DNA from: an uncultured Thermoprotei archaeon
GTDB lineage: Archaea > Thermoproteota > Thermoprotei > Thermofilales > B15-G2
DNA length: 64,000 nucleotides
Direction of reading: 5' to 3'
Assembly (NCBI GenBank): GCA_965367815.1
Contig: CBDUKN010000005.1
Location: 1 to 64,000, forward strand
Part shown: positions 20,347-51,909 of the stretch, one piece after another
How the letters are laid out: each line of letters opens with the position of its first letter
How positions within the stretch are numbered: the stretch's first letter is position 1
Translations under genes and position numbers: made by a program
Notes under the pieces: generated by a model
The model's input: only the letters and a program-made list of their open reading frames with translations
Told to the model about the DNA's origin: nothing
Database searches by the model: none

Positions 20347-20448
20347 ATAGCTCACTGGGTCTACGGTAAAAGTGATTTAAAAATCTTTTGCAAAAAACAC
20401 GCGAGGTATGAGAGAAATATTCGACGGGTATTTAAGGTTTTCGTTAAA

Positions 20449-20458
20449 CCTTATAAAA
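20449..20458 (+). promoter_or_regulatory. Putative TATA box for a leaderless transcript starting near 20479
   Basis: CCTTATAAAA about 25 nt upstream of GTG 20479. Confidence 0.4.
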
Positions 20459-20478
20459 TTTTCATGCGAGTAAAAAAT

Positions 20479-22452
20479 GTGAGCTCGGAAGCTAAAACTG
20501 AGGAGAAAAAAGTAGAGTATCAAAAGGGACTAACTCCTTTAGCCCTAGGTCTAGGTATAATTCTGGTAATAATAGGTACATATATAAACACGATGTGCTG
20601 GCTGGGCGCTCGAGTAACATTAGAGCCATGGTTCGCTGGACGAATCGGCTCAGCGCTCTACCCGCCATTTGCCCTAGCGTTCCTCTTGGCCATACTAGCA
20701 TACTTCATGCGAGGTAAACTATCAGCACAAGAAATCGCCATAATATCAGCAATGGTTTTCATAACAATGGACGCTCCATTTGTCATAATGACATTCCTTG
20801 AAATACCAATCGCAGCAACCTATCAAGCCCTGAAGAACCCTCAAGTCGAAGAGCTATGGGAATTAATGCCAGACTACTGGACACCTAAAGACCCAAGCTT
20901 AGTAGAGCCGCTTTATACAGGCGGAGGAGTAAATTTCGGCCCATTAATGCCTTACGTAAGCTTGGCGATATTTACATTACTGCTCTACCTACTACTGGTG
21001 TTCTTCATAGCAACTATTATTAGAGAATATCACATTAAAGTAGAAAAAATACCCTTCCCCAACGTACTACCACTAGTAGAAGTGGTCAAGTACGGAGTAG
21101 TCGAAAAATCACTGTTCCAAGTAAGTAAAATGATACCATTCTACGTAGGCTTCATTATAGGCTTAATTGTAGCTGGAATCTCCGTAATGAACTACATCGC
21201 ACCAATTTTCCCAATCTTCTTCGCCTGGGGCCAGTATTATCTAGGTCCCACCCTCGGAAGCTTTCTGCAAAGTGTATGCCCCTCTATCCAGGGATGGTGG
21301 ATGTTTATTCCCGCTGACGTGGCAGTGTTCTATTTGGCTCCTCTCGATATCTTATTCACTGGAACTCTCTGGACATTCTTATGTGCAATAATCTTACCGA
21401 TAGCCTTCGTATCGGCAGGAATTGTTCCAGCAGGTACAAATATTGGTTCGAGCGGACCATTCCAGTGGAGTAGAATCGCCAGATATAATGTGCCAATAGC
21501 AATAGGTGTCTTCGCAATAATCTTCGGATTAAAGACCTATAAAGAAAGCTTAGTGAAAGCTATCAGAGGAGAAAAACCCGAGCCAGGTGAAATACCGCCG
21601 CTGCTAATGTGGGGCGGCTTTATAGCAGTATTTATTATCTACCTTGCTTTCTGGAGCTACGTTGGTGTTCCAGCAATAGTAGCTTTCGTGGCGCTACTAG
21701 TCTGGATAATAGACAGCATTGGTTCAGCTAAGATTGTAGGAGAGTCAGGTACATGGCCGTCACTAGGTGGCAGCTGGATATACATGCAGTCTATCGCTTA
21801 CCAGACAGGAATGGCTCTAGGAATTTACCCAAGCAACCCATACAAGTCAACAAGTAGCTGGGCTCTAGGCGCCATGGTGTCTTACACACTGCCAGGCCTC
21901 GCGTACCAGTCATCAGGAACAGTATGGGGCTTCCTCTCAAGCTATGCCATAGCAGAACACCTCAAAGTAAGAGGCAAAGACATATTCTTAGCGATGCTCA
22001 TCGCACTTCTAGTAATGACCTTTATAGGTCCATGGGAGGTACTAGGTTACGCAAGCAGTGTAGGAATTAATAAATTGGGCCTAGCTTGGGGTATGGGCGA
22101 CGGCAGATTCGTTACAAGCAAGCAGATGTCCTATGTCCTTAGAGCAGGCTATACAGTCACGGAAGAACATGCAGGATTCCTTGTATTAACGTTCATAATA
22201 GTAGGCGTACTGTGGTTCCTAAGAACTAAGTTCCCATGGTTCATACTGAACCCAGTAGGTCTCTTCTTCTATGACGGAATGTGGCTGATTAACGTAGGTA
22301 TAGCATTTATACTTAAAGTAATCACAATTAAAGTCTTCGGAGCTAGAGCTTATGAGAGAGTAGGAGTGCCTCTAGCAGTAGGATTCGTAACAGGCCTAGG
22401 CCTAGGAGCGTTCCTAGGAATGACAGGATATACACTAATGAAAGCTCCATAA
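20479..22452 (+). CDS. OPT-superfamily-like polytopic membrane transporter, type B (DUF6785/DUF6784-like, from memory)
   Basis: Many TM helices; E.IPFP, YLAPLD, NPVG, K....FG...Y.R.G.P.A.G motifs shared with 46073-48037. Likely start GTG 20479, since the track start overlaps rgy. Confidence 0.65.
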   Translation: MSSEAKTEEKKVEYQKGLTPLALGLGIILVIIGTYINTMCWLGARVTLEPWFAGRIGSALYPPFALAFLLAILAYFMRGKLSAQEIAIISAMVFITMDAPFVIMTFLEIPIAATYQALKNPQVEELWELMPDYWTPKDPSLVEPLYTGGGVNFGPLMPYVSLAIFTLLLYLLLVFFIATIIREYHIKVEKIPFPNVLPLVEVVKYGVVEKSLFQVSKMIPFYVGFIIGLIVAGISVMNYIAPIFPIFFAWGQYYLGPTLGSFLQSVCPSIQGWWMFIPADVAVFYLAPLDILFTGTLWTFLCAIILPIAFVSAGIVPAGTNIGSSGPFQWSRIARYNVPIAIGVFAIIFGLKTYKESLVKAIRGEKPEPGEIPPLLMWGGFIAVFIIYLAFWSYVGVPAIVAFVALLVWIIDSIGSAKIVGESGTWPSLGGSWIYMQSIAYQTGMALGIYPSNPYKSTSSWALGAMVSYTLPGLAYQSSGTVWGFLSSYAIAEHLKVRGKDIFLAMLIALLVMTFIGPWEVLGYASSVGINKLGLAWGMGDGRFVTSKQMSYVLRAGYTVTEEHAGFLVLTFIIVGVLWFLRTKFPWFILNPVGLFFYDGMWLINVGIAFILKVITIKVFGARAYERVGVPLAVGFVTGLGLGAFLGMTGYTLMKAP

Positions 22453-22602
22453 ATTTCTTAAGATTTTTTACATTTATTCAAAATACTATTTTACTTCATC
22501 TCTCGAGAGTAGTTTTCTGAATTTTTCTCTATTCAGGAAATTTTCTTCTTCCAAAGATAATATTTATATTAAAACCTCGGATAAGTATTTCGGTGTCTCT
22601 CT

Positions 22603-25600
22603 ATGTCGAATAAATTAGTATTAATACTAGCTTTGCTGCTAACATTCCCATATATAATCTGTTTTACTGCAACAATGGCTCCTCAAATAACAACAGAAAT
22701 AAGCATTGAGAATATAGCTAAACACATAGAATTCTTCGTGAGCCTGGAGTCGCGATTTGTTGGAACTGAAGGATACTACAAGGCTGCAGAATATATTGAA
22801 AAGTATTTAAGTGGTCTTGGCTTAAAGCCGAAAATACAGGAATTTAAAGTCCTTGTCCCGGTGGAGAGCAACACTCGATTAACTGTAGGCGGCGAGGCAT
22901 ATGAACTATATTCAGTTTACCCGAACTTAGTGGCGCCATCAAAAGCACCGCCTGAAGGAATCACAGGCAAGTTAGTTTATGTAGGCAGGGGCTCACTCGA
23001 AGAAATGAGCGGAAAAGATATCTTTGGATCAATAGTTCTCATAGATATTGATGGATGTGACAAGTGGATTAATGCAATGAAGCTAGGTGCTAAAGCTATA
23101 ATTATTCTCGAGACAAAAGAAGTAGATAGACTACGACTAGAAAGAAGTCTGACTATAGGTGCTCCAATACCTTTTCCAAGATTCTACGCTAAAGGTGATG
23201 TAGCGCTTAAGTTAATAGAGCTAGCTAAGAAAGGAGTTACAGCAACAATTTATGGAGGTCATATATGGAAAGAAGTAAAGGGAATAAACATTATTGCCAC
23301 AGTTGAGGGAAGCGAATACACCAATAAAGTAATTTACCTGCTAGCACACTATGACTCATTTTCGTATGTTCCAGCACTAAGCCCTGGAGCAGACGAAGCA
23401 TGCGGAATAGCTACTCTCCTTGAGCTAGCTCGAATAATAAAAGAGCTTAAACCTAAATTCACAGTATGTATAGTCGCTATAGGAAGCCACTGGCAAGGGC
23501 TAGCTGGAGCAAGATACTTTGTAGAAGAATACTTGTTCAGCGAAGAAGTAGGCACTAAAATACAGCCTTACTTAGCTATAGGCTTAGACCTATCAACTAG
23601 CACTAATAAAGTATGTTTCGCGGTCACAGGCTACATGTACGCTATGGCTCATTCAAATCTTTACGATAGACTCCTCACATCAATATTTATGTTCTCCAGA
23701 GAAGTCTTAAACGAATTCCAGCAAGAATACAGTGATGTATACTCAAGAATAGAAAGCAATGAGCTCAAAAACTTACTAGGACTTACTGCAAGTAATTGGG
23801 GCTCTGGATATGTAATGCCTTATATTCTTGACACAGAACCATTTAATGTTGCAGGACTCCCTGCTTTTACTTTTTTGACTCTTTATGACATGAGAGGCTT
23901 CTGGTTGACGCCGTTTGATACCTTCGACAAAGTAAACTTAAATAATTTAAGAGATCAAGTGATTTTTATAAGCTACTATTTAAAGAAGCTAGTAACAGAG
24001 GCCACTCCAGACAATATATATAGAGGCTCTTGGAGTGATATAAAGCCTTCTAGATTAAAACTAATAGCGACGGGAGCAAACTTCGGCTATGATAGACTGA
24101 TAGTAGAAGTAGTTAGATACGACCCGACAACACCAAAGCTCTATAGACCAGTGCCAAATGCTATTGTTGTAGTATCAAAGAGAACAGGCTGGTACTCTAT
24201 CGCTGCAGCATACAATAGATACAATATGTTTGCTTGGATTTTAGCGAGAGCTGACGAAAATGGAACGGCTCTCATAGTAGGTGCTCCTTCAACCCACGCA
24301 GCATGCGGCAACGTATATGTGGAGGCCTATGTAGTAAGCGACGAGACAGGAAGACTAACATATGCTCCTGACGAAGGAAGTTACGGGACGAGTGTATACC
24401 CGCATGTAATAGAAGTAAAAGAAGATCTGCAGAGGAGTAGAACAGTGGTTTTTGAGTGCTCTACTCTAGTAGTATCTGATGTAATATATCCGTATACTTT
24501 GCAGAAAAACATTTATTTGTCACCATTTAAGTCGCCCACTAATCCGATACCTTATGCATCGTACGACACCCAGGTCTCAGCAGAAGTTCTTCAAGCAGAA
24601 GCCTTCAATCCGCTAATGTCTTATGGCTGGACGTATGACCCATTAACTTCTACTTTATTAGTATTTGCTCCACCCAACATACGCTTCGTAACTATCATTA
24701 AGTTCACGGGCCAAGCCTTCATAGGAGCAATAGTCTGTAACTCTACTCCAGAAGAACCTTTAGGTAAAGGCTACAGCTTCAATAAAATAGGAGAAGTAAA
24801 GTACATTACTATAGCTCCTCACCTCTACACCAAAGAGTTACTCTCAATTACCCAGCCAAGATATCATATAGCTTCTGTCTACAAGATACTTGATCCAGCG
24901 CTAACTAACTACTTTACTTTAGCTAATTCATTCCTAGCCGAAAGTGAGGCGAGCATTAAGAGCAAAGAGTATGCTAAGGCATACTATCAGTCGCTACTAG
25001 CATGGGGCTACGCGCTAAAAGCCTATGAGCGATCAAGAGACGTATACCTTGACGCTGCTTTCAGCATAACATTCGCTCTCCTAATAATTCTACCCTCAAT
25101 AGTGCTCATGGAGAAGCTCATAGGCAAAATGAAGGGCTTCAGCAGAATAACAATACTTGTGGCGATAGGTATCATATTCTTCACTATTCTATGGGCTCTA
25201 CACCCCGGTTTCAGCATTATAGGAAGTGTTCCTGCTCTGATCACGGGAACAGTAGTACTAGTACTCGTCGCACCAGTACTAGTACTAGTTATTTCCCAAG
25301 CGTCCTTCGGAGTAAGCGAAATTAGAAAGAGTCAGATAGGACTCCACTTCCTAGAGCGCTCGAGACTAGAGATGATTGTCTCAGCCTTATTAATAGGCAT
25401 TGAGCATATGAAGAGAAGAAAGCTGAGAACTTTGCTAACACTATTCACAGTCATAGCTGTTACATTCTCGCTAGTATCGCTAACTTCAGTTACTCCTGTG
25501 GTCGTACTCAAAGGAAACGTCCGTCCAGGAAAGCCACTATACAAAGGTATTCTAATAGAGTCAGTAGGATTCACTCCAATAGAAGAAAATGTTATCTACA

Positions 25601-27081
25601 TAGCTAAAGAGCTATTCCCCAACGCAATTGTATGCGAGAGAGTATGGGTATACCCCGAGCTAGGACAGAGAGAAGTTTCTCAAAGTACATTCTCGCTCTT
25701 CGCTAAAAACCAGACAATGTATCTGAGAGCAATAGTTGGAGTATCAGTCAACGAAAAGTATGCTCTAGGAGACTTCCTACTAACGAAAGCTTGGCTCGGA
25801 GGAAGCTGGTTTGACAGCGACTACGAGTACGCGTGTATCGTACCCAAGAGTGTAGCCAGCGCACTAGGACTGCACATTGGAGACACAGTCTGGCTAAACG
25901 GTATAAGATTCATTGTGAAAGGAATATTCGACGATATAGCTTTAAGCGAAGGCTTAATAGACTTAGACGGCTACTGCTCACTCCAGCCAATTTTCAGAGA
26001 AGAGCTGACAGTACTACAGGTATTCGACCCTGAAGTGAGAGTAAAGTGGAGCTCTCTTGTCTTGATACCTGTAGGCATAGCTAAAGCCATGCCAGGATCC
26101 TACCTAGCCTCAGTAGCAGTAGTTACCTCTGCACCTGACTCTGAGATAGTAAAGAAGGCTGAAATGATGTATTCCTGCATGGACGGACTAATAGTCCACG
26201 CAGGACTCTCGGATAGGGTACAAGTATACGCTAAAGCCTACGTGCAAGTAGTAAGCGGCTTCTCGATGGTTATTCCACTAATAGTCATTGGAGGCCTAGT
26301 AATTCTGACAACAATCCTTGGAAACACTTACGAGAGAATGAAAGAAGCAGGAATACTCAGCGCTCTAGGTCTATCGCCAATACATGTTTCAGGAATGTTC
26401 TTCGCAGAAAACGTCGTATATGCTCTCGTAGGAGCATCGATAGGATACGCTCTAGGACTAATAGGCGCTAGATTCTTCGCGGCATACCACATTCTGCCAG
26501 AGTACGTCGGAGTAAACTACACTTCAACAAGCGTGATCTTCTCGATAGGCATGGTTATAATCATGGTTCTATCGGCTTCACTCTATCCATTCTATAAGGT
26601 GTCCAAGCTAGTTACACCAAGCCTAGAGAGACGCTGGAAGCCTCCGACAAAGCCTAAAGGAGATGAGTGGGAAATACCACTACCATTCACTTACTTAGAC
26701 TTCAATGAAGTACTGGGTCTAGTCTACTACCTCTCAGAAATATACAGAGAGCACACCATTGAGAGAGCAGGAGCATATACTGTAGTGAAGCACAGAATGT
26801 TTAAGGAGCAGGAGAAAGCCGGAATAGAGTCGATAATATGGCTGCCGCCCTACGAGCTGAACATTAGGCAGAAATCGCTACTAGTACTATATAGAAGCAA
26901 GACTGAAGGAAAGTACGTGACCACATTAGTCTTAAAGAGACTGAGCGGACCTTACGTAAACTGGGTCAACTCCAACCTAGGCTATATAGACGAGCTACGC
27001 AAGCAGTTCTTGACATGGCGTCTCCTAAGGCCTGAGGAGAGGCGCAAGTATATAGAGAAGGCTTTATCTACTCTGAGGTGA
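22603..27081 (+). CDS. PA/M28-peptidase-like ectodomain fused to MacB/FtsX-type permease (1492 aa)
   Basis: Signal/TM; SR..GTEG, PA insert (YVGRG...GAKA), AHYDS, PGADE; TM bundle; RRKLRTLLT; MacB-like extracellular domain; YERMKEAGILSALG coupling helix; VTPSLERRWK. Confidence 0.8.
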   Translation: MSNKLVLILALLLTFPYIICFTATMAPQITTEISIENIAKHIEFFVSLESRFVGTEGYYKAAEYIEKYLSGLGLKPKIQEFKVLVPVESNTRLTVGGEAYELYSVYPNLVAPSKAPPEGITGKLVYVGRGSLEEMSGKDIFGSIVLIDIDGCDKWINAMKLGAKAIIILETKEVDRLRLERSLTIGAPIPFPRFYAKGDVALKLIELAKKGVTATIYGGHIWKEVKGINIIATVEGSEYTNKVIYLLAHYDSFSYVPALSPGADEACGIATLLELARIIKELKPKFTVCIVAIGSHWQGLAGARYFVEEYLFSEEVGTKIQPYLAIGLDLSTSTNKVCFAVTGYMYAMAHSNLYDRLLTSIFMFSREVLNEFQQEYSDVYSRIESNELKNLLGLTASNWGSGYVMPYILDTEPFNVAGLPAFTFLTLYDMRGFWLTPFDTFDKVNLNNLRDQVIFISYYLKKLVTEATPDNIYRGSWSDIKPSRLKLIATGANFGYDRLIVEVVRYDPTTPKLYRPVPNAIVVVSKRTGWYSIAAAYNRYNMFAWILARADENGTALIVGAPSTHAACGNVYVEAYVVSDETGRLTYAPDEGSYGTSVYPHVIEVKEDLQRSRTVVFECSTLVVSDVIYPYTLQKNIYLSPFKSPTNPIPYASYDTQVSAEVLQAEAFNPLMSYGWTYDPLTSTLLVFAPPNIRFVTIIKFTGQAFIGAIVCNSTPEEPLGKGYSFNKIGEVKYITIAPHLYTKELLSITQPRYHIASVYKILDPALTNYFTLANSFLAESEASIKSKEYAKAYYQSLLAWGYALKAYERSRDVYLDAAFSITFALLIILPSIVLMEKLIGKMKGFSRITILVAIGIIFFTILWALHPGFSIIGSVPALITGTVVLVLVAPVLVLVISQASFGVSEIRKSQIGLHFLERSRLEMIVSALLIGIEHMKRRKLRTLLTLFTVIAVTFSLVSLTSVTPVVVLKGNVRPGKPLYKGILIESVGFTPIEENVIYIAKELFPNAIVCERVWVYPELGQREVSQSTFSLFAKNQTMYLRAIVGVSVNEKYALGDFLLTKAWLGGSWFDSDYEYACIVPKSVASALGLHIGDTVWLNGIRFIVKGIFDDIALSEGLIDLDGYCSLQPIFREELTVLQVFDPEVRVKWSSLVLIPVGIAKAMPGSYLASVAVVTSAPDSEIVKKAEMMYSCMDGLIVHAGLSDRVQVYAKAYVQVVSGFSMVIPLIVIGGLVILTTILGNTYERMKEAGILSALGLSPIHVSGMFFAENVVYALVGASIGYALGLIGARFFAAYHILPEYVGVNYTSTSVIFSIGMVIIMVLSASLYPFYKVSKLVTPSLERRWKPPTKPKGDEWEIPLPFTYLDFNEVLGLVYYLSEIYREHTIERAGAYTVVKHRMFKEQEKAGIESIIWLPPYELNIRQKSLLVLYRSKTEGKYVTTLVLKRLSGPYVNWVNSNLGYIDELRKQFLTWRLLRPEERRKYIEKALSTLR

Positions 27082-27086
27082 GGAGA

Positions 27087-28994
27087 ATGGCCGAGGCCGG
27101 CGGAAAAGAAATAGAAGAATTTAAGCCCGGCCTAACGCCAGTATCGCTCTTCGCCATACTCTACGCAACAGTTGTAATGACTCCAGTAGTCATCTTCTTG
27201 CAGATAGTAGCCGGTGTCAGCGACGTAGTGAGATTCATACCTGTTTTCATAACTCTACTTCTATTTACTGAGGTAGGACGATTCGCCTACCGATATGTCA
27301 CAAGCCAGGAAGCCTTCATTATATACTTCATGGCCGAAATGGTAGCATTCGACGCGCCCTACTTTGGCGGATTAATATACAATCTGTATTTGAGAGAAGC
27401 ACCCTACACTAAGCTATTCGGGCTGGCCGACAAGATACCTACATGGGCTGCTCCACCGCTGACAAGCTACGGAGCAGTATTCAGAACATTTATTGCTCTT
27501 GAGTGGGCCATGCCTATAGCAGTATCACTAATAGGCTTTGCCGCAGGAACGCTTATAGACTTCGCGTTATCATTCATACTTATTCAGCTGTTCATCGAAA
27601 TAGAGAACTTGCCATACCCAGTAGCTCCAATCGACGCTCAGGCAATAACGACACTAACAGAGAGAACACCTGAGAAAATAACTTGGTTCTCGGTAGCAGC
27701 AGTTATTGGATTTATCTACGAATTCATACTGTACGGAATACCCAGCATAACTGAAACATTTCTCAAGACGAAGATATACTTCATACCCTACCCCTGGATA
27801 GACCTAACGTACCTCATAGAGAAAGTACTGCCAGGAGCAATGTTCGGCTTAGCTACAGACATTTCAATGTTCGTAGTAGGCTGGGTAGTGCCATTCGACG
27901 CCGCTATGTGGATTTTCATCGGAAGCTTAACAACCTTCGTTATAGGAAACTTCCTGGCACTAAAGCTACCGCTACCAGCTTTCGCTGAGTGGCAGAGAGA
28001 GTGGACACCAGGGCTAAGCATAAGCTGGCTATGGCAGAGAAGCATGTACAATATATGGGCTAGCCCGCTCATAGGACTCTCGCTAGGCGCATCGCTGTAT
28101 ATCTTCGCAAGATCGCTCAAGTACATGGGTAAAGCTCTCGAAAGCTTAAGGAGACTAACAGAGGTTTCTAGAGCCAAAGGATACCTTTCACTGAAGTACG
28201 TTTTAGCGATGTGGATCACAGGTATAGTTTTAGGAATAGCGATAGACTGTCTGCTAGTGCCGCAGATATGGTACGTATGGGTCTTCATATGGGCAGTAGT
28301 ACCATTCCTCCAGGCAATACTAGTAGGAAGAATGGTTGCTGAAATAGGAATAGGTACAGGTATCCCTTATATACGTGAAGCACTTCTGCTGGCTACAACA
28401 CCTCCAGGTTTCGTAGACCCCTGGATGGCTCCATGTAAGACAACTACAGCGGCTGGTATAATAGCACACAGGATTAAAGTAGCTCTGCTAACTAAGACAA
28501 AGCCTATTGACTACTACAAGGCATCAGTAATAGCCATACCGATAATAATCTTCGCGAGCTTCGTGTTCTGGAGCTTATTCTGGTCAATGGCTCCTATACC
28601 TTCAGCAATGTATCCGTGGACAGCTATTTCATGGCCAGTGCAGTCTCTAAACTTCGCTCTCTGGGTCTCGAGATCATTTCAGATATTCAAGCCTGACCAG
28701 ATACTTGGAGCAACAGTACTGATATTCGTTGTAAGCGCTATTGCAGAGAAATTCAAGCTGCCGTTCAACTACTTAGGCTTCGTAGCTGGCGCAGGCATGG
28801 TCCCGCCATTCGCTCTAAACTACTTCCTTGGAGCACTTGTAGGGAGATACATTGAGAAGAAAGTAGGTAAAGAGCGCTGGGAAGTACTGAGATCAGTAAT
28901 AATAGCTGGACTGTTCTGTGGTACAGGACTAGCAGTAGGTCTCTCAGTAGCAATACTGCTCATAGGCAGAAGCATTTGGGGAGCGCCCTACTAA
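27087..28994 (+). CDS. OPT-superfamily-like polytopic membrane transporter, type A
   Basis: GLTP, T.QEAF.I, IENLPYPVA, LPGAMFG, C-terminal SIWGAPY; homologous to 44250-46091. Confidence 0.7.
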   Translation: MAEAGGKEIEEFKPGLTPVSLFAILYATVVMTPVVIFLQIVAGVSDVVRFIPVFITLLLFTEVGRFAYRYVTSQEAFIIYFMAEMVAFDAPYFGGLIYNLYLREAPYTKLFGLADKIPTWAAPPLTSYGAVFRTFIALEWAMPIAVSLIGFAAGTLIDFALSFILIQLFIEIENLPYPVAPIDAQAITTLTERTPEKITWFSVAAVIGFIYEFILYGIPSITETFLKTKIYFIPYPWIDLTYLIEKVLPGAMFGLATDISMFVVGWVVPFDAAMWIFIGSLTTFVIGNFLALKLPLPAFAEWQREWTPGLSISWLWQRSMYNIWASPLIGLSLGASLYIFARSLKYMGKALESLRRLTEVSRAKGYLSLKYVLAMWITGIVLGIAIDCLLVPQIWYVWVFIWAVVPFLQAILVGRMVAEIGIGTGIPYIREALLLATTPPGFVDPWMAPCKTTTAAGIIAHRIKVALLTKTKPIDYYKASVIAIPIIIFASFVFWSLFWSMAPIPSAMYPWTAISWPVQSLNFALWVSRSFQIFKPDQILGATVLIFVVSAIAEKFKLPFNYLGFVAGAGMVPPFALNYFLGALVGRYIEKKVGKERWEVLRSVIIAGLFCGTGLAVGLSVAILLIGRSIWGAPY

Positions 28995-40312: not shown

Positions 40313-43300
40313 ATGAAGGAATTATACAGAGCTCTAGTGCTACTGATGATACTTCTAGTATTTCTTCAGCCCGAAGTACTGGGCAAAGAAAATCCTTTTG
40401 ATCTTAGAAGCTTTATTTCTTCAATAGACTTCAATAGAGTGTGGAATTATACTAAAGTACTCTCTAGCTATAGATCTCGTGTACCAGGTTATCCAGGCTA
40501 CTATAAGGCAATTAGATTTATAGCTGAATACTTTAGGAAAATCGGCGTAGGGTATATTCTAGAGAATTTTTCTGTAACTTCTCCTATAGAAGAAAAAGTA
40601 TATATAAAGGTTATTGAGACAGGCGAAGTTTTAGAGGCTCATGCGCTTTGGCCCAACATGATTGTGACGTCTAATATTGATTACAAGGGGAGAATCGTTT
40701 ACGGAGGTAAAGGAAAGCTTCTTGATTTCAACGGAAGAGATTTAGAGGGATCTATTGTTTTACTGGATTTCAACTGTAGATGGTTCTGGACGAATGCTTT
40801 TTCCTTGGGTGCTAAAGCTGTAGTTTTCATAGAGAATAAGTCTACTTTGAGGTTCGATGCCTGGCTCAAAGTCTTTCATATGCCAGCATATTTTCCTAGA
40901 CTATATGTTGATAAAGAAGTGGGAGAAAAATTAATTGAGTACGCTGAAAAGGGGTATCATGTAAAAATATATTCTAAGGTCGAGTGGCGTGAAGTAACTG
41001 CTACAAATATTGTGGCCATGATTCCGGGAACAGATGTAATTTTGTCTAAGGAGGCTGTGTGTATAGTAGCTCATGTAGACTCTCTTTCTCCAGTTCCAGC
41101 AAAAGCTCCGGGGGCTTCAGAAGCATTTAACGTAGCTCTTGTACTTGAACTAGCTAGACTCTTCCTTAAGTTAAAGCCTAAGAGAAGTATAGCAATTTTG
41201 ATTACTGGGGCTCATGGCTTGGCTTTGGCTGGGGCTAGAGAATATGTTTCAGTGCATTTTAACGAACTTGGAGTTAGAATAAGGCTTGTAGTAGAGCTTG
41301 ATTTAGATTGGACAGGCTCAGAGCTAGCTGCACAGTACTATGGTTTGTTTTATAACTTGTTGGCCTTTGTTCCAGGCTATGAGGCTAGATATAGGTGGGT
41401 AAGAGACCGTATGATCAGATACATGGATTCGATAGATGAGGCTCTTGGAGAAAAAGTATTTGTATACGATACATTGTCGCTTACGTACTTCTTTTACGAG
41501 CCAATTCCCTGTTTCTTAGACAGCGAAGTATTCGCTTTAACAGGCATACCTGCTTTCACTTTAAGAACATTTTACAGCTTTAGACCATGGCTATACACGC
41601 CATATGATACTTTAGAGCATGCAGACATAGATTTTGCGGAAAAACAAGCTAAAATAGCTCTCTCTATCATCTATTGTTTTACAAAGGATTCAGAGAAAAT
41701 GCCTTCCTCAACCCCTACTACAAGAGGTGTAGGATACGGATTTTCGTACATAAAGGGAAGAGTGTATAGGTACAATAGAACAAAGGGGTGGTTTGAACCA
41801 GTTTCAGCTATAGTGGCTTTACCTATGTGGCCTTATCACATAGGAGTGCTAACAGACTCTAATGGGACTTTCATAATTAAGGGAGTGAGATACAGTGGAT
41901 ACTACTGGCTTTTAGGATTTAGGCTAAATGAAGAAGGAACTGTTGAAGCAGCTAATGAGTATGGTGGATTAGGGCCTGTACTGCCCATGCTTTTCGGTGT
42001 TAGTGTCTATAAGACTATTTCTGAAGTAAACATTAGAATAACTGACTGTGGCTCACTTGTTATTACTAATGCATATGATCCTAGGTTCTTTATTCCAGGA
42101 TATTTGTCTTTCTCGGTTCTTAATGCTACTTATCATACGGCGCTGATAAGCCGGGGGCCTCAATACTGGTACTGGTATTCTCAAGTACTTATTCTTCCAG
42201 CTGGCACAAGAATAGAAGTAGTTATGAAAAGAGGACTCGATGTAGTCGCAGTAATAAATAATGCTTCTCCCGAGAATCCTTTAGGAAAGGGCTACTCTAT
42301 TGAGAAAGGTAAGCAAATTTTGTTAGAGAACTTTCCTCTTGTGGCAGCAAGTACTCTTTATACAATACTAGACTATAGGATAAAGACGCTCAGAGTATAC
42401 AGCTATAGAGTTCTAGACTATCACAAAGAAGCAGGAGTCTTAATAAATGAAAGCAGAAGACTTCTAAGAGAGAAAAAGTATGGAGTAGCCTATGCGTCGA
42501 TGTTAAGAGCGTGGGCTATGGAGGCCCATGCGTATAATTCTTTCCAGTTTCTGTTAGGAGACATAGGTTTTGCACTAATAGTTATTGTTGTACTGCTTTT
42601 CATAGCTTCTATGAGATTGAAGCTTTTGTTTAGAAAGTCGTCTAATACTGTTGCATTTACTTGTTTTGCTTTATCGCTATTCGTAATTTCGCTATGTCAC
42701 CCGTCTGTAAGAGCATGCTCTTTAGGCCTCTTTATAGTTCCTTCAGCTGGAGCTCTGTTAGTAATAATAGTTGTTGTCATATCGCTACTTAAGACTTTTC
42801 TTTCTCAAATAATGAAGATTAAAAGAAAGCCTCCTAGAGTATTTTCTCGCAGAGTTTTTGCAGAAATACTTCTCTTATCTCTTGCCACTTCAGTAAGTTT
42901 CTTTATGTCTGGTAATCTTACATATGTAACTCATATAAGTGAAGCTAGGCTAGGGGCCAAAGGGTCTTATAGCGGCATAATGATAAGGACTTTTCCGTGG
43001 AGTGTTCTATGTGAGGCTGAATACGATATAATCAGGAGCGAAGTCAAAGCTCTCGGCGGGTACTCTTCTATGAGAGTATGGGCTTATCCTCACTATGGTG
43101 AAGTTCGAGTAAGCAATATGACTATTCTCAAAGCGTTCTTAGGGCTGGGATTAGAGGAAGTGAAGATATCGAACATAAAAAAAGCTATAGTCAAGGGAGG
43201 CTGGTTTAGTAGTGAATTCGCGAAGGAGTGTATAGTTAGCTCTTTCTTAGCTAAAACACTAAATATTAGTGTTGGAGACGAAGTTGTACTATATGGACTT

Positions 43301-44269
43301 AGGCTGAAAGTGGTAGGGATATTTAATGAAAGCATGTTGAGTGTATTTAAAGACCTAGACGGAGAGCTAATAACTCCGAGAGACATAATGATTCCTAGGA
43401 GTGAGGAAATTCCGGTACATACAGCTCCCAAGTACATAGTTATAGTGCCGGATGAACTAGCCCGCGAAATGGACGGCAATATTTATAGTGTAGCTATATC
43501 GTTTAACAACAGTAAGCTTTTAGTAGAGTACGCACGTCGTCTAGCTTATATCTTTGATGGAGTCTACGTTTATTTGTCAGTAGACGGTGAAAGATATATT
43601 GTCGCAGCTCATCATGCACTCGGATTCAAGATAATAAATCGGTTCTTCTTAATACTTGTACTTTTCTTTTCGTCAATTATTCTTATAGTCGCATCGGTAG
43701 AAAAGGAGTTTACTACATCTGATGCTCTTCAAGCAAGCTTCATAGGAGGAATCCTAGGCTATGTAGTACACTTAGCTTTAGCTGAACTTGGTTTATGTGA
43801 GCCTAGTGTCATAACTTTGGCGCCTATAGTTAGCTGTCTTATAGGCTTTGTTCCAGTTTCACTGTCGACGGCTTTCTCGAGGAAAGTAAGAGAATTAAGA
43901 GAAGCTGCTATAGAGGCAGTTCCAGTCGAATATAGGATTAAAATAGAAGAGCCTTTACCTAGAGCTCTTGATTTCATCGAAGAGGTCGTCAAAGAGGCTT
44001 TGACAGAAGAACACGGGTATTTGATTAAACGTAGAAAAAGAACAGGCGAGTATCTTGCTCTATTAGTTCAAATACTGCCTAGAGAACTTTTCCTCTTCTA
44101 TAAAATAGTATTTAAGCCAATTACAGTAGATGGAGAAACATATATAGTCTTAGAGATAGCAGGCAAAGGCCTAGGTGCTAAGAAAATTAAAAGACGTATT
44201 GTACCCGATATAGTTGAGCTTATTGAAAACAAGTTGAGGGAAAAAGAGGGTGAGAAGCTTGAGGAGTAG
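40313..44269 (+). CDS. Second PA/M28-like + MacB/FtsX-like fusion (1318 aa), permease part degenerate
   Basis: SRVPG..G, PA insert, AHVDS, APGASE, FPRLY, NASPENPLGKGY, DLDGE.ITP; homologous to 22603-27081 but lacks the ERxxExxxLxxLG helix. Confidence 0.78.
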   Translation: MKELYRALVLLMILLVFLQPEVLGKENPFDLRSFISSIDFNRVWNYTKVLSSYRSRVPGYPGYYKAIRFIAEYFRKIGVGYILENFSVTSPIEEKVYIKVIETGEVLEAHALWPNMIVTSNIDYKGRIVYGGKGKLLDFNGRDLEGSIVLLDFNCRWFWTNAFSLGAKAVVFIENKSTLRFDAWLKVFHMPAYFPRLYVDKEVGEKLIEYAEKGYHVKIYSKVEWREVTATNIVAMIPGTDVILSKEAVCIVAHVDSLSPVPAKAPGASEAFNVALVLELARLFLKLKPKRSIAILITGAHGLALAGAREYVSVHFNELGVRIRLVVELDLDWTGSELAAQYYGLFYNLLAFVPGYEARYRWVRDRMIRYMDSIDEALGEKVFVYDTLSLTYFFYEPIPCFLDSEVFALTGIPAFTLRTFYSFRPWLYTPYDTLEHADIDFAEKQAKIALSIIYCFTKDSEKMPSSTPTTRGVGYGFSYIKGRVYRYNRTKGWFEPVSAIVALPMWPYHIGVLTDSNGTFIIKGVRYSGYYWLLGFRLNEEGTVEAANEYGGLGPVLPMLFGVSVYKTISEVNIRITDCGSLVITNAYDPRFFIPGYLSFSVLNATYHTALISRGPQYWYWYSQVLILPAGTRIEVVMKRGLDVVAVINNASPENPLGKGYSIEKGKQILLENFPLVAASTLYTILDYRIKTLRVYSYRVLDYHKEAGVLINESRRLLREKKYGVAYASMLRAWAMEAHAYNSFQFLLGDIGFALIVIVVLLFIASMRLKLLFRKSSNTVAFTCFALSLFVISLCHPSVRACSLGLFIVPSAGALLVIIVVVISLLKTFLSQIMKIKRKPPRVFSRRVFAEILLLSLATSVSFFMSGNLTYVTHISEARLGAKGSYSGIMIRTFPWSVLCEAEYDIIRSEVKALGGYSSMRVWAYPHYGEVRVSNMTILKAFLGLGLEEVKISNIKKAIVKGGWFSSEFAKECIVSSFLAKTLNISVGDEVVLYGLRLKVVGIFNESMLSVFKDLDGELITPRDIMIPRSEEIPVHTAPKYIVIVPDELAREMDGNIYSVAISFNNSKLLVEYARRLAYIFDGVYVYLSVDGERYIVAAHHALGFKIINRFFLILVLFFSSIILIVASVEKEFTTSDALQASFIGGILGYVVHLALAELGLCEPSVITLAPIVSCLIGFVPVSLSTAFSRKVRELREAAIEAVPVEYRIKIEEPLPRALDFIEEVVKEALTEEHGYLIKRRKRTGEYLALLVQILPRELFLFYKIVFKPITVDGETYIVLEIAGKGLGAKKIKRRIVPDIVELIENKLREKEGEKLEE

Positions 44270-46091
44270 TGCAGTTTTTCTTATTCTCTTTATTCTCTCA
44301 GCGATAATTATTCCTCTAATACTTTACTCGAATCTAATAGGAGCGGGATTTTCACAAATAAACGCTTGGCTTATAGTAATAGCTGTTTCAGAAATAGCTC
44401 TTTGGCTAGGGAAAAGGCTTACTCGAAGTGAAGCATTCTTAATACAGGTACTATTGCCTGTTATTACTGGTCAAGCTCTTCTATTCTACAATATTCTCTA
44501 CTACAGCTATATAGTGTGGAGCCCTTTCTCGAAAGAGTTCAGTTTCACCAAAATTATATGGTGGTTTCCCCAAGAGCCATTAGTAGCTTTGAATATAAGA
44601 AGTTTCATTCAGCCTACTTTTGCTCCTATAGTAGCGATTTTTGTTACAACATCTCTTATTAGTACTGTATCGGGACTTGCTTTAGGTTATATAGGATATG
44701 AATTACTGGTAGTCAAAGAGAAGCTTGACTTTCCTATGCAAGTAGCTGTAGCTGATGGTCTTTCAGCAGTAGTAGGAGAAGACCCCGTTAAAGTCAAGTT
44801 TTTCTCTATATCAGCCATTATAGGTATACTTTATGCAACATTAACTACACTAATACCTATTCTTGCTATGCGCCAAGTGCCTGCTCTGCTACCAATATTT
44901 ACCTACGACTTGACTCTAGTGGTAGAACATTTTCTTCCCGGAGCTACTTTAGGCATAGACTTTAATCTGCTTACATTCTCTTCAGGTCTAGTTATTCCTA
45001 TTAAAAGAGCTTTATGCCTGCTCATAGGCTCTCTCTTAGTATATGTAATCGGGAATCATTTGCTCGTAGTGACAGGCTACTGGACTAGTAGCCCTATAGG
45101 CAGATGGATGCCTGGGTCAAATATTTCCTACTGTATTAGATGGTCGTCGTTCAATTTCTGGACAAGCTTCAACATAGGTGTGGCTCTCTCTGCTGCACTA
45201 ATACCGCTTATTTTGAAGAGAGAAGTTGTCAAAGAAGTGTTCTCTACTATAGCTCAAGTAACTAAAGGTAAGGGAGGGTATGCTTCAAGAGCTCTTTTAC
45301 TGTTTATAGCTCTTTCTTTCTTAAATATCATGCTACTAGTGTTAGCTTTACCGGAGTTTCCCGTGTATTTAGTGGCATGTTTCATGCTACTATGGCCACT
45401 AGTCTCTACACTAGTATCAGCTAGCTCTATAGGTGCCTCAGTCTACAGCTTTAACATACCTTATGTCAAAGAAGGACTCATAATAGCGTCGAAGTATAAG
45501 GGTCTTGACGTGTGGATTTATCCGCTATACCTTGATCCAGGAGGAGCAGGATATACTGCTAACATGAAGACTTCTGTACTCTGTGGAGTAAAGCCAGGAG
45601 ACTACATCAAGTACACAGTGTTAGCAGTAATTATGGGCATAGCTCTCAGCTTTATTTTTACTACAATCCTGTGGTATATACATCCTATTCCATCATGGAG
45701 CTACCCTGCTACAGCATATAACTGGCAGATATCGGCCTATAATTTCCTCTTAAACATCTCGTGGATGAGTCACGGCGAGATCATTAAGCCGCATATAATA
45801 CTACTGGGAGTAATTATAGGAGGCATAGGCTATATTACAGCATATATCTTCAAAAAGGAAGCCCTTTTCTTCTCACTAGTAGCAGGTCTATCGCTAGCTC
45901 CTTCAGCTGCTCTAACAACATTCATAGGATCTCTAGTCAGTAGCCAGCTAATGTCGAGAATATATAAAGATAAGTGGCAAGAATATGTAGGAAGCGTGAC
46001 TTCAGGTTTAACTGCGGGCTGGGGAGCTGTTAGTTCATTTGCTTCAATAATAGCTTTTATCCAGAGGGGAGTATGGGTACTGCCATATTAA
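44250..46091 (+). CDS. OPT-like transporter, type A
   Basis: T.SEAF.I, EKLDFP, LPGATLG, IPY.KE, PIPS..YP, C-terminal GVWVLPY; paralogue of 27087-28994. Confidence 0.7.
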   Translation: MRSLRSSAVFLILFILSAIIIPLILYSNLIGAGFSQINAWLIVIAVSEIALWLGKRLTRSEAFLIQVLLPVITGQALLFYNILYYSYIVWSPFSKEFSFTKIIWWFPQEPLVALNIRSFIQPTFAPIVAIFVTTSLISTVSGLALGYIGYELLVVKEKLDFPMQVAVADGLSAVVGEDPVKVKFFSISAIIGILYATLTTLIPILAMRQVPALLPIFTYDLTLVVEHFLPGATLGIDFNLLTFSSGLVIPIKRALCLLIGSLLVYVIGNHLLVVTGYWTSSPIGRWMPGSNISYCIRWSSFNFWTSFNIGVALSAALIPLILKREVVKEVFSTIAQVTKGKGGYASRALLLFIALSFLNIMLLVLALPEFPVYLVACFMLLWPLVSTLVSASSIGASVYSFNIPYVKEGLIIASKYKGLDVWIYPLYLDPGGAGYTANMKTSVLCGVKPGDYIKYTVLAVIMGIALSFIFTTILWYIHPIPSWSYPATAYNWQISAYNFLLNISWMSHGEIIKPHIILLGVIIGGIGYITAYIFKKEALFFSLVAGLSLAPSAALTTFIGSLVSSQLMSRIYKDKWQEYVGSVTSGLTAGWGAVSSFASIIAFIQRGVWVLPY

Positions 46092-48747: not shown

Positions 48748-51700
48748 ATGAGAAATAAAGCCGCTATTGTTATTATTGTCTGGCTAGTTCTACTACCAGT
48801 CTTCTCAAAATTTATAGCTCATCCCTCCTCATCTACTATTAAAATTACTTTCATAGATGAGGACTCAGAAAACCCTGTTGTTGGAGTTTTCTTGATGAAG
48901 AGCGGAAATAAATGGTTATATGTTAAGACAAATAATAGAGGTGAAATAATTGTTAACAAGAACAGTTTAATTTATGGCCCAAGAATATCTCCTAAACCAT
49001 ATTTTCCAATAAAGATAATAGCCTTAAAGAACACTACTATAAAACTAAAGAAAGCATACTTCATTGTAATGAAAAAATACTTAGCTCTATATAATCCATA
49101 TGAAAAAATAGAAAAAATTTCTCCTATTGGAGCTATCTCCTTTGAAGTAAATAATATGAGATTTGGCTATAAGAGCGACGCAAGATATCTTGGACTTAAC
49201 TCTTCAACAGTACTAGTTCCAGTAAGCGGGGAAATCATATTAATAAAAACGAATAACTTTATATTAAGTATAAATGCCACTCAAGCAAAATGGGGTGATT
49301 ATATTGAATTAGATTTAGGGAAAGTCAGCTGCAAATATAACAAGATATTCTTAGATAACTCTATAGCCAAGCTAAAAGAACAAATGAGTATACTAGAAAG
49401 AAAAGGTATTTACGTGGGGTTCTGTAAAACACTATTTGAACAGCTGATTGAACTTAAAAATAAAGCTGAAGAATTCTATAAACGCGGAAACTGGGAAGAA
49501 GCCCTTGTCGCCTATAAGAAAGCTTTTCTAATATATGGCGATATAGTAAACAGAATTAATGTTCTTAGTACTAGATCAACTTTAACTGTTCCTACTATAT
49601 CATTAGTTCTAGTTTTTCTTTCATACTTCTTGGCTTCATTTATAACTGACAAGAAGTTCAAGAAAATATTATTATATTCTTGCATATACTTTATATTACT
49701 GTTAATTATATTTGCAGTATATCCTATTTTACTTGAAGGAAATCCCTATCTTACGATATCTCCTTTATTCATATACCTATTCTCTCTGATAATCTTTATA
49801 TTATCTGAAAAGATACCTGACCATTATATCAGAGAAGGATTTTCTTTCGCCGCTGCTACTTCAGCTTCTCTATCAATAGTTTTAAGGGAGAATAGGAGAC
49901 GTAAATTGAGGTTAACCTTAACTTTGTTAACTATAGCTCTTGTAGCGTTTGCTGTACATACTTTAAACACTTTAACTATTATTCAGTGGTTCTATGAAAA
50001 GGAAGTAGCTTATGTATCTTCAGCATACAATGGAAGTATCTTAGTGACAAAACTTAAAGAAAGTGTATTTCCATATTATTCTCTTTCAATAGTATTTGTA
50101 AGAACTATTTCGAATATAGATTCTCCTCAAATAATTTGTATTAAACGTGAATCTTCGCCTTATTCTAAAGAGTTTAAAATAAGTTATGGCGAAAAAGAAG
50201 TATATGCACTAGGAGCTATAAGCTTTACATCCGAAGTAAAGTATTTTCTCCCTCTAAAAGAAGCCGTAATAGAGGGTAAAATTCCAAGTCAGGAAAGTGA
50301 AGTTCTCTTAAGTCAAACAATGGCGAGTGCCCTTGGAGCAAAGTGCGGAGATAAAGTATCTATTAATGGTATTGAGGCCACTGTTGTAGGAATATTTGAT
50401 GAAGATAAACTTAGTGAAATAAGAGACCTTGATGGAGGAAAGATATTGCCAGTAATGATAACTCGGGAAGAAGGGTCATGGAGACTTGAAGTAATTCCTG
50501 CCAAATACACTATTATCTGTTCCGAGTTACTAGGAGAACGCCTTAAACTGCCGCGCTACAAAATCTACGTAAAAGTTTTGGGAAATCCAGAAGACTACGC
50601 AAGAAAAGCCGCTATTTTAACCGGTTCGTTGGTTTTCATAAACATGGGAGGAAAAGTAAAGTACTATACTGTATCTACAGTTATTGTAGTTAAGGGAGAG
50701 TCTCTTATTATTCCGATAGTGATTGCTCTTCTAACAGTATTTGTTTCAATAATGGAGAATGTATATGAAAGAAAAAGAGAAATAAGTATACTAGCATCCT
50801 TAGGTCTAAATCCATCGAATATAGCTTATCTCTTTTCGCTCGAAGGAGCAGTCTTGGGTTTTGTGGGATCTGCTCTCGGAATGTTTGCAGGATTTATTGC
50901 ATTTAAAGCATTTAGTTTAGCGGAAGTACTTGTTCCAGTAGACTTTAAGTTATCTCCAGTAGAACTATTGTTTACAGTAGTTGCAGCAACGCTAGTATCG
51001 ATTACTGCGTCTCTTCCTCCGGCGCTAAAAGCGTCGGTCATGGTTACTCCTAGTCTTGAAAGACGTTGGAAACTAGAAGAACAGAAAGATTTCATTGAAA
51101 GAGGATTGACACAAACACTTCCAATAAGAATACCAGCAAATAGAGTAGAAGACTTTGTGAACTATGTAGTAAGCAAGTTCAGAGAACTGAGTACAGGTCT
51201 TTTGCAGAAAGTAGACTTAATTTCTGTGGAAAAAATAGGTGAAGAATACAGAATATTATTCAAGTACTACAAGGGAAGCGATATTAGCTATAAGTCGTGT
51301 TTTACTGAGAATACTTTAATATTATATAAGATCAGTGATAATGTCTACGGAGCTAAGGCTACATCAAAGCCTGTTACCCAGCACAGTAAGCTGGGACTCT
51401 ACTATGTTCATGAAACACTATCTTTTCTACGTAAAATAGCCTTGGAGTGGAGTTCGAGAGCCACACGAATACTCGTGGCTCTAGGAGAAAACCCTGCAGT
51501 ACTATACACTATAGTGAAAAAATATGACCCGTATGAAGTAATAGTTCTAACTACTCCTGAGCGCATAGAAACAGTATCAAATGCTAAGAAAATTCTTGTA
51601 AAAGAAAAAATTCGAGTACCTGCTATTAGAGTCTATTCATTATCTTCCCTAAGCGAGTTATTTAAACTAAAGGAAGACTTAAGAATTTTACTAAGTGAAG

Positions 51701-51909
51701 TGCAGTACATCGCAGTAGGCTACGACTCGGGTCTAGCTGGAGTAATTTTGACTATTCTTTCATCTAAAGCAGGGAAGAAAATACTGCTCATAGAAGACAA
51801 GAGGAGCAAAACTAAGAAAGAAGAGAGGTCTTTTGCTAAGCTAGAGGTAACAGAAGTTTCTCCCAGTGAGTTAAAGAGAATATTTGGCTACAGAGAGTCA
51901 TTAGAATAA
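48748..51909 (+). CDS. MacB/FtsX-type permease paralogue without M28 domain, with C-terminal CARF-like Rossmann domain
   Basis: RRRKLRLTLT, DLDGG.I.P, YERKREISILASLG and VTPSLERRWK shared with 22603. The extra C-terminal ~140 aa begins RILVALGENP...EVIVLTT. Confidence 0.75.
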   Translation: MRNKAAIVIIVWLVLLPVFSKFIAHPSSSTIKITFIDEDSENPVVGVFLMKSGNKWLYVKTNNRGEIIVNKNSLIYGPRISPKPYFPIKIIALKNTTIKLKKAYFIVMKKYLALYNPYEKIEKISPIGAISFEVNNMRFGYKSDARYLGLNSSTVLVPVSGEIILIKTNNFILSINATQAKWGDYIELDLGKVSCKYNKIFLDNSIAKLKEQMSILERKGIYVGFCKTLFEQLIELKNKAEEFYKRGNWEEALVAYKKAFLIYGDIVNRINVLSTRSTLTVPTISLVLVFLSYFLASFITDKKFKKILLYSCIYFILLLIIFAVYPILLEGNPYLTISPLFIYLFSLIIFILSEKIPDHYIREGFSFAAATSASLSIVLRENRRRKLRLTLTLLTIALVAFAVHTLNTLTIIQWFYEKEVAYVSSAYNGSILVTKLKESVFPYYSLSIVFVRTISNIDSPQIICIKRESSPYSKEFKISYGEKEVYALGAISFTSEVKYFLPLKEAVIEGKIPSQESEVLLSQTMASALGAKCGDKVSINGIEATVVGIFDEDKLSEIRDLDGGKILPVMITREEGSWRLEVIPAKYTIICSELLGERLKLPRYKIYVKVLGNPEDYARKAAILTGSLVFINMGGKVKYYTVSTVIVVKGESLIIPIVIALLTVFVSIMENVYERKREISILASLGLNPSNIAYLFSLEGAVLGFVGSALGMFAGFIAFKAFSLAEVLVPVDFKLSPVELLFTVVAATLVSITASLPPALKASVMVTPSLERRWKLEEQKDFIERGLTQTLPIRIPANRVEDFVNYVVSKFRELSTGLLQKVDLISVEKIGEEYRILFKYYKGSDISYKSCFTENTLILYKISDNVYGAKATSKPVTQHSKLGLYYVHETLSFLRKIALEWSSRATRILVALGENPAVLYTIVKKYDPYEVIVLTTPERIETVSNAKKILVKEKIRVPAIRVYSLSSLSELFKLKEDLRILLSEVQYIAVGYDSGLAGVILTILSSKAGKKILLIEDKRSKTKKEERSFAKLEVTEVSPSELKRIFGYRESLE

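Follow-up and report, generated by a model that had tools for sequence, protein, structure and literature searches.

Nicastrin, nicalin and the transferrin receptor are non-catalytic, M28-like receptor ectodomains. In MacB, the ATPase contacts a major coupling helix, which connects transmembrane (TM) helices TM2 and TM3, and a minor one that follows TM4 (excerpts of PMC5985334). In the OPT family, HvYS1 forms a homodimer via its scaffold domains, and an elevator-like model has been described for it (excerpts of PMC9691689). Here we describe a module built from such parts in a window of 64,000 nucleotides, the whole stretch of DNA that was analysed, from an uncultured Thermoprotei archaeon (Thermofilales; B15-G2; assembly GCA_965367815.1, contig CBDUKN010000005.1, positions 1 to 64,000 of the forward strand). 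Two loci in this window each encode a giant membrane protein, F, and two transporter-like proteins, A and B. The module is real, widespread and unstudied. Each of its parts falls into a known superfamily (type VII ABC permeases, OPT, M28-like pseudo-enzymes). Their combination, a conserved tail on F and the lack of a cis-encoded ATPase are undescribed in the literature searched. No paper containing DUF6785 or DUF6784 was found, nor a relevant one on an FtsX/M28/OPT combination in archaea, in line with an earlier note on this DNA, made from the sequence alone, that had called the trio uncharacterised. We read the whole as a module for nutrient capture and import, possibly directed at glycans and possibly driven in trans, an interpretation that we rank first without yet calling it probable.

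As the earlier note had proposed, the window holds two trios whose genes are co-oriented within each locus, in the order B-F-A and then F-A-B, and all six open reading frames (ORFs) lie on the plus strand. Their features are as follows, with residues 1335-1492 of F1 delimited by alignment and an AlphaFold2 (AF2) model.

20479-28994, plus strand: locus 1, B1-F1-A1, order B-F-A
20479..22452, plus strand: B1, polytopic membrane protein of the DUF6785 family, OPT superfamily; its ORF reaches upstream to 20329
22603..27081, plus strand: F1, giant of 1492 amino acids
26605..27078, plus strand: cytoplasmic tail domain of F1, residues 1335-1492
27078..28994, plus strand: A1, polytopic membrane protein of 638 amino acids, putative divergent OPT-family member
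40313-48037, plus strand: locus 2, F2-A2-B2, order F-A-B
40313..44269, plus strand: F2, F1 paralogue of 1318 amino acids; FtsX module degenerate, tail divergent
44250..46091, plus strand: A2, OPT-like paralogue of A1, 613 amino acids
46073..48037, plus strand: B2, 654 amino acids, DUF6785 and DUF6784, E-value 1.5e-103 to the hidden Markov model (HMM) of the B family
48748..51909, plus strand: possible accessory FtsX giant of 1053 amino acids without an M28 head; Pfam TPR, MacB_PCD and FtsX; long cytoplasmic tail

The genes are tightly packed, with overlaps of 4 nt between the F1 stop and the A1 start, 20 nt between F2 and A2, and 19 nt between A2 and B2. Judged by sequence similarity, the corresponding proteins are true paralogue pairs, B1/B2 more weakly so. 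A1 and A2 are 28% identical over their full length (E-value 8e-59) and F1 and F2 are 26% identical (2e-86), with an alignment that stops ahead of TM2-4, while the similarity of B1 and B2 is confined to the C-terminal end (7e-7).

Copies of the module are numerous in the host genome (2.45 Mb, 99.4% complete; the contig of the window measures 149 kb). There are eight giants with an M28 head (F), and family HMMs counted six A and eight B genes, all of which adjoin a giant or sit at a contig end. Six trios are complete: two on contig C5 and one each on C7, C1, C24 and C3. The partial loci are a trio truncated by the end of contig C12 and a solitary F, also on C12. Among 18 FtsX matches in the genome, four are ordinary small FtsX genes that adjoin an ABC ATPase gene; the others are giants of roughly 970-1533 amino acids with no adjoining ABC ATPase gene.

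Related genomes, scanned for relatives of the F base with one genome per species, yielded 188 loci, of which the best 80 were examined with HMMs made from the paralogues of the host genome. Every one of these 80 comes from an archaeal metagenome-assembled genome (MAG), and together they include Thermoproteales, Thermofilaceae, Brockarchaeota, Bathyarchaeia, Nitrososphaerota, Caldarchaeales and others. F was found in 80/80 loci, A in 73/80 (no more than 700 bp from F in 70/80) and B in 62/80 (no more than 700 bp from F in 38/80). Both A and B were present in 60/80, and most loci that miss one of them terminate within a few kb of F; L012, L034, L039, L088 and L089 lack B despite about 10 kb of flanking sequence. 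The gene order was B-F-A in 27 of the loci, F-A-B in 12, B'-F-A in 10 and F-A in 10, with others rarer. This recurrence, in the host genome and in related loci, far exceeds chance, and the six complete trios and the 60 loci with both partners bear out the earlier suggestion that the trio behaves as a unit.

A and B belong together by homology. Members of the A family matched OPT (PF03169) in 30 of the 57 aligned sequences (E-value ≤0.01, best 2.4e-16) and no other family. The alignments of the A and B families could be aligned to each other over 577 columns (hhalign probability 99.9, E-value 2e-36). On these comparisons A appears to be a divergent OPT protein and B, which carries DUF6785/DUF6784, is a full-length homologue of A, so that both transporters are OPT-like, as first suspected. 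Individual members are close to the limit of detection: A1 had no Pfam match, A2 matched OPT at 25.6 bits (6.1e-6), just below the cut-off of 25.8, and a paralogue on contig C3 reached 60 bits. B1 matched DUF6785 at 57.1 bits (1.6e-15), B2 matched DUF6785 and DUF6784 above cut-off (31.8 and 40.6 bits), and five more paralogues in the genome also match DUF6785/DUF6784. The A-family profile found nothing among Protein Data Bank (PDB) sequences at E-value ≤1, which does not thereby exclude a shared fold. We counted about 12 hydrophobic segments in A1 and about 12-15 in B1, and the proteins measure about 610-720 amino acids. Considering that HvYS1 is a homodimer and that A and B are co-encoded paralogues, the two most simply would form a heterodimer in place of the OPT homodimer.

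The giant F combines an extracellular head with a permease-like base. Pfam recognised Peptidase_M28 (57.9 bits) and FtsX (52.8 bits, cut-off 25.5) in F1, with weak matches to PA and MacB_PCD. F1 is divided as follows.

Residues 1-27: signal or anchor
Residues ~28-470: PA/M28 pseudo-peptidase head
Residues ~471-812: middle ectodomain
Residues 813-907: three additional TM helices
Residues 940-1333: MacB-type module with TM1, periplasmic core domain and TM2-4
Residues 1335-1492: cytoplasmic tail

The ectodomain comprises about 785 residues in total, and hydropathy and AF2 place a cytoplasmic amphipathic helix between the three additional TM helices and TM1. An ESM Atlas search with residues 470-812 gave no usable match.

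The head has lost the active site of its family. Aligned with the PA-aminopeptidase 2ek8 (E-value 6e-24), F1 has His-Trp in place of the Glu-Glu pair and Leu in place of the last His ligand. Neither the Glu-Glu pair nor the last His ligand is present in any of the eight paralogues of the genome or in any of 43 homologues (0/8 and 0/43 for each). The head is thus no canonical peptidase and can at most bind, not cleave. Thus, of the earlier idea that the M28/PA domains bind or cleave peptides, cleavage drops out, the catalytic residues being gone in every copy examined. The Asp of the His-x-Asp motif is retained in 43/43 homologues, and a new His occupies the position of the first Glu in 36/43, and a conserved His-aromatic pair stands in place of Glu-Glu. 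Since these positions are kept, the site is remodelled rather than merely decayed, and the head is probably still a binding pocket. Weak sequence matches connect the F1 head to nicalin and one paralogue to the Nicastrin Pfam family.

An AF2 model of F1 residues 800-1492 has a mean predicted local distance difference test (pLDDT) of 85.4. Foldseek matched this model best to MacB (5gko, 1.2e-10) and LolCDE (4e-10), both with probability 1.0, and then to HrtBA, YbbAP and YtrEF, and also to BceAB; the isolated periplasmic domains gave TM-scores of about 0.6, normalised to the target. The base of F is thus modelled as a MacB/LolCE fold. The positions of both MacB coupling helices are among the most conserved segments across the F family and are near-invariant. 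FtsX scored above the Pfam cut-off in 7/8 of the M28-type giants of the genome, the exception being F2, where M28 matches at 51.3 bits, MacB_PCD is weak and FtsX is absent. Both coupling-helix motifs are also absent from F2, as read by eye from its sequence, and the tail HMM gives no match to it.

The 158-residue tail is conserved in the alignment of 57 sequences, and a near-invariant TPSLERRW helix opens it right after TM4. Its AF2 model (pLDDT 93.2) consists of a strand, a helix, four strands and two helices in that order. Foldseek found nothing in PDB at E-value ≤1e-3, and the best VIA score (Z 8.2, to alpha+beta folds such as KA1, Ups1, START and Aha1) is borderline, within the range of that tool for models without a true match. 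We considered the tail as a motor, but no nucleoside triphosphatase feature occurs in its model or among the Foldseek and VIA rows shown, which does not thereby exclude unlisted families. The tail profile found 1579 cluster representatives (50% identity clusters) at E-value ≤1e-3, and the 150 representatives listed, most of them about 1430-1570 amino acids in length, match it at their C-terminal end or close to it. Present in the tail-bearing giants, the tail is missing from the four ordinary FtsX proteins with ATPase neighbours.

No ABC_tran domain scored above cut-off on the 149-kb contig, and in the 80 related loci no ABC ORF was contiguous with F or nearer than about 1.4 kb. ABC ATPase ORFs are not enriched: these loci contain 19 in 1.30 Mb, a density of 1.46 per 100 kb, compared with 1.80 for the host genome. 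The earlier remark that no ATPase lies beside either locus thus extends well beyond the window. Such absence in cis is no proof of an ATPase-less system, as an orphan ATPase co-occurs with the giants and F is so well conserved at both MacB coupling positions. The genome encodes five ATPases of the MacB/LolD kind by similarity, four of which adjoin FtsX genes. The fifth, at C4:10332-11063 (L099:4332-5060), has RLI/ABCE1, a TFS-like gene and Cgi121 as neighbours and no permease close by. In NCBIfam it scores best against LolD, MacB, DarD, DevA, YbbA and FtsE, in each case under the equivalog cut-off.

We compared the distribution of this orphan ATPase with that of the tail-bearing giants across 61 genomes of the class, counting a match of at least 80% identity as an ortholog. 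Both were present in 16 genomes and neither in 42 (best ATPase matches ≤57% identical); two genomes (69% and 85% complete) had the ortholog without giants and one (93% complete, about 150 contigs) had giants without the ortholog, in a sample of related genomes whose independence is thereby overstated. In one family, giants and ortholog occur together in three genera and are both missing from two. The ATPase is slow to evolve, at 80-87% identity between several families of the class, and 0/17 of its orthologs have an FtsX-type neighbour within 1.5 kb. In five distant F-bearing archaea the ATPase matches are 67-81% identical, one copy being orphan-like and one paired with a small FtsX protein.

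The ATPase_2 gene at 35904-36998 of the window was rejected as the missing motor, because its product is of the archaeal AAA type and matches ABC only below threshold. A paralogue of the orphan ATPase is encoded with a very small FtsX protein (about 212-240 amino acids, 4-5 TM helices, no periplasmic domain) at C9:63012-64375 and also in L118, L124-L126 and L128. Finally, ABC_tran matches broken by stop codons at C20:43972-44389, C16:14043-14473 and C14:17170-17595 look like ABC ATPase pseudogenes or frameshifts.

The genes that flank the module lean towards carbohydrates. We scanned 128 of 223 candidate ORFs, up to two genes either side of the module, the remainder being 73 from L067-L090 and 22 others (near-duplicates L021-L023, L028 and L057, two very long ORFs and short end fragments). 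As a control we used 119 ORFs from eight arbitrary 20-kb regions of the host genome. Carbohydrate-related families (E-value ≤1e-8) accounted for 37/128 flanking ORFs and 10/119 control ORFs (Fisher p 4e-5), which is a lead and not proof, since the list of families was compiled after the hits were seen, the control comes from a single genome with many glycoside hydrolases of its own, and the 128 are part of the 223. Among the 37 are GH10, GH15, GH53, GH57, GH66, GH127, GH130 (three times), GHL10 and BNR, along with GFO/IDH/MocA, xylose-isomerase-like barrels, enolase-type dehydratases, UxuA, FGGY, Leloir enzymes, SIS and TrmB. That the paralogues are numerous and that their catabolic surroundings differ from one to the next suggests that their substrates differ too.

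In the mechanism that we propose, each trio would be one membrane machine that captures and imports a nutrient oligomer. F would be the receptor, its non-catalytic PA/M28 head held outside the cell on the four-helix base of MacB/LolCE type. A and B would form the translocating unit, in which an ion gradient moves the captured substrate inward. The base of F would relay conformational change between the cytoplasm and the head; like MacB-type proteins in general, it would not itself move substrate through the membrane. The driving force would probably come from a LolD/MacB-type ATPase encoded elsewhere and common to all 7-9 receptor paralogues of a genome. Carbohydrate-derived oligomers (oligosaccharides or glycopeptides) would be likelier substrates than plain peptides.

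Several points weigh against this proposal, beginning with the limits given above with the two comparisons. To our knowledge, all OPT substrates are peptides, glutathione or metal chelates, not sugars. Glycoside hydrolases alone are not significantly more frequent among the flanks (11/128 against 4/119, p 0.11), and in the host genome only about 3/8 loci have sugar-related neighbours, while peptidases or a penicillin amidase adjoin others. Searches for longer homologues of A1 and B1 turned up no fusion of F to A or B, which counts only weakly against the proposal. As for the ATPase, the paralogue that is paired with a small FtsX protein has nearly the same distribution as the giants, the conserved tail of F might occupy the ATPase docking site, and F2 at least, having lost its coupling motifs, would use no ATPase.

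The last two of these points lead to the strongest alternative, that the same capture and import module works with no ATPase. The FtsX base and tail would then be a static dimeric anchor for the head, or a regulator at most, the ion-driven OPT pair would power all of the transport, and the orphan ATPase would serve something else. That neither the host genome nor the 80 loci encode an ATPase in cis is as expected from this, as is a 158-residue tail that sits at the would-be docking site and is not found in ordinary FtsX proteins with ATPase neighbours; F2, which lacks coupling motifs, has kept its partners A2 and B2. Against it stand the near-invariant coupling-helix positions of the family and the tight co-occurrence of a slowly evolving orphan ATPase with the giants. 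We regard a module without an ATPase as rather unlikely.

A second alternative concerns the substrate. The head could bind peptide termini and pass peptides or oligopeptides to the OPT-type importers, and the earlier note had likewise pictured the capture of peptides or glycopeptides. Characterised OPT members transport peptides, and the M28/PA fold is a peptide-binding scaffold. Peptidase or amidase genes also adjoin some loci: on C12 these are DUF5700 and M50, on C3 it is the penicillin amidase, and in L058 an M28 gene. Peptidases are nonetheless few among the 128 flanking ORFs, of which 37 are sugar-related, so that the neighbours favour carbohydrate over peptide; glycopeptides still fit this picture and plain peptides fit it less well. 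Dedicated peptide uptake is, in our view, unlikely.

Thirdly, the module could serve export or remodelling of the envelope: the base, in the manner of LolCDE, MacB or FtsEX, would act outside the membrane, for instance on S-layer glycoproteins or lipid-linked glycans, and the OPT-like pair would export or flip the substrate. The characterised MacB-type systems covered in excerpts of PMC5985334 all act outward or regulate extracellular hydrolases, and glycan-related neighbours could also fit the turnover of envelope glycans. We consider this improbable, since the placing of 7-9 divergent copies in a genome next to catabolic enzymes (GH130, GH10, GH15, GH66, sugar kinases and Leloir genes) resembles nutrient acquisition and the scanned flanks contain no glycosyltransferase or S-layer genes. 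A role as a BceAB-like sensor, which would detect an extracellular ligand and signal inward via the tail, draws on the ligand sensing of BceAB-type FtsX proteins (excerpts of PMC5985334) and on the weak resemblance of the tail to KA1/START-like regulatory domains, and is very improbable given that no kinase or regulator is consistently adjacent and that two large transporters are the constant partners.

The accessory giant begins 711 nt past locus 2. It is 35% identical to F1 over the PCD-FtsX region, including VTPSLERRWK, and similar smaller giants adjoin trios on contigs C7 and C3 and in 5/80 related loci. It retains everything that F2 has lost of the base and beyond: the Pfam match to FtsX, the two coupling-helix motifs and a recognisable tail. 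As a speculation, F2 and the accessory giant might pair as LolC and LolE do.

Other giants in the genome bear other heads, which are Ntn-hydrolase-like, TPR or CarboxypepD_reg. One FtsX giant of 1200 amino acids on C3 (C3:116339-119941, L002:3339-6941) has a Phospholipase_B/AAT (Ntn-hydrolase-like) head and a recognisable tail, and sits directly downstream of the penicillin amidase gene. The scaffold of base plus tail thus takes interchangeable heads. On contig C24 (C24:8946-12072, L007), two paralogues of about 516 amino acids, which match DUF4861 weakly and have a coiled coil at the C-terminus, lie between A and B of the trio.

The window is of hyperthermophile type, encoding a reverse gyrase and TYW3, and its nearest relatives are Thermoprotei MAGs. 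The reverse gyrase gene (16651-20355, minus strand) diverges from locus 1, and a relative with 81% identity (L015) keeps the neighbourhood of MgtC/DUF4010, reverse gyrase, trio and P-type ATPase. The ORF of B1 spans 20329-22452, and the part from 20329 overlaps the start of reverse gyrase; a GTG start at 20479 is plausible. By eye we found a TATA-like box at 20453-20460, about 24 nt ahead of this GTG, and others at 22566-22573 (F1) and about 40275 (F2), all three some 24-35 nt before the starts. Within locus 1, F1 may thus have its own promoter. A search for RNA evidence over 22603-28994 turned up no entry.

The host lineages, uncultured but abundant, degrade organic matter in hot and anoxic sediments by routes of polymer uptake about which little has been reported. 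At 7-9 copies per 2-Mb genome, the module probably accounts for much of the way in which they acquire nutrients. In the class sample it was found in none of the genomes assembled to one or two contigs, which may explain why it has not been studied. If the proposal is true, the module would join a MacB-type mechanotransmitter to an OPT elevator-type carrier, two classes that are not known to work together.

Compared with known systems, F has in common with type VII ABC proteins (MacB, LolCDE, FtsEX, HrtBA, YbbAP, YtrEF and BceAB) the four TM helices and the large extracytoplasmic domain between TM1 and TM2, the Pfam domains FtsX and MacB_PCD, and conserved coupling-helix segments. It differs from them in that no ATPase is fused to it or encoded beside it, that a pseudo-peptidase head of 800 residues and three more TM helices precede the module, and that a conserved 158-residue tail follows TM4. 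Its partners are two proteins of putative OPT fold, not adaptor or outer-membrane proteins. A and B resemble the OPT/Yellow-Stripe-like proteins, of which HvYS1 is an example, in size and in their 12 or more hydrophobic segments, and the dimeric state of HvYS1 fits a two-subunit unit. Unlike these, A and B are very divergent, are two distinct paralogues, occur beside a giant FtsX protein and may have a substrate other than peptide. The head, like nicastrin, nicalin and the transferrin receptor, has a PA plus M28 fold with catalytic residues lost; in contrast to them, it is nearest in sequence to bacterial PA-aminopeptidases (2ek8), is fused to a MacB-type base and carries a new His-aromatic pair.

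The MsiK ATPase is reportedly common to the sugar ABC importers CebEFG and DasABC. Like the present one, these systems have many permease loci without an ATPase gene of their own and one separately encoded ATPase. They are classical importers with binding proteins, whereas here the module is of type VII and would use the orphan ATPase; if it does, the idea of a shared ATPase extends to type VII systems. In the polysaccharide utilisation loci (PULs) of Bacteroidota, multi-copy SusC/SusD receptor-transporter pairs stand amid varied glycan-catabolic genes. The likeness is an analogy of working only, as there is no homology and here neither a TonB-dependent transporter nor an outer membrane. Unlikely as we hold the idea to be, uncultured Thermoproteota, Bathyarchaeia, Brockarchaeota and their relatives could have an archaeal counterpart of the PUL, with the first OPT proteins to carry carbohydrate and the first type VII ABC system paired with a secondary transporter; in it, families of type VII-based surface receptors, all energised by one orphan ATPase, would pass glycan fragments to heterodimeric OPT importers.

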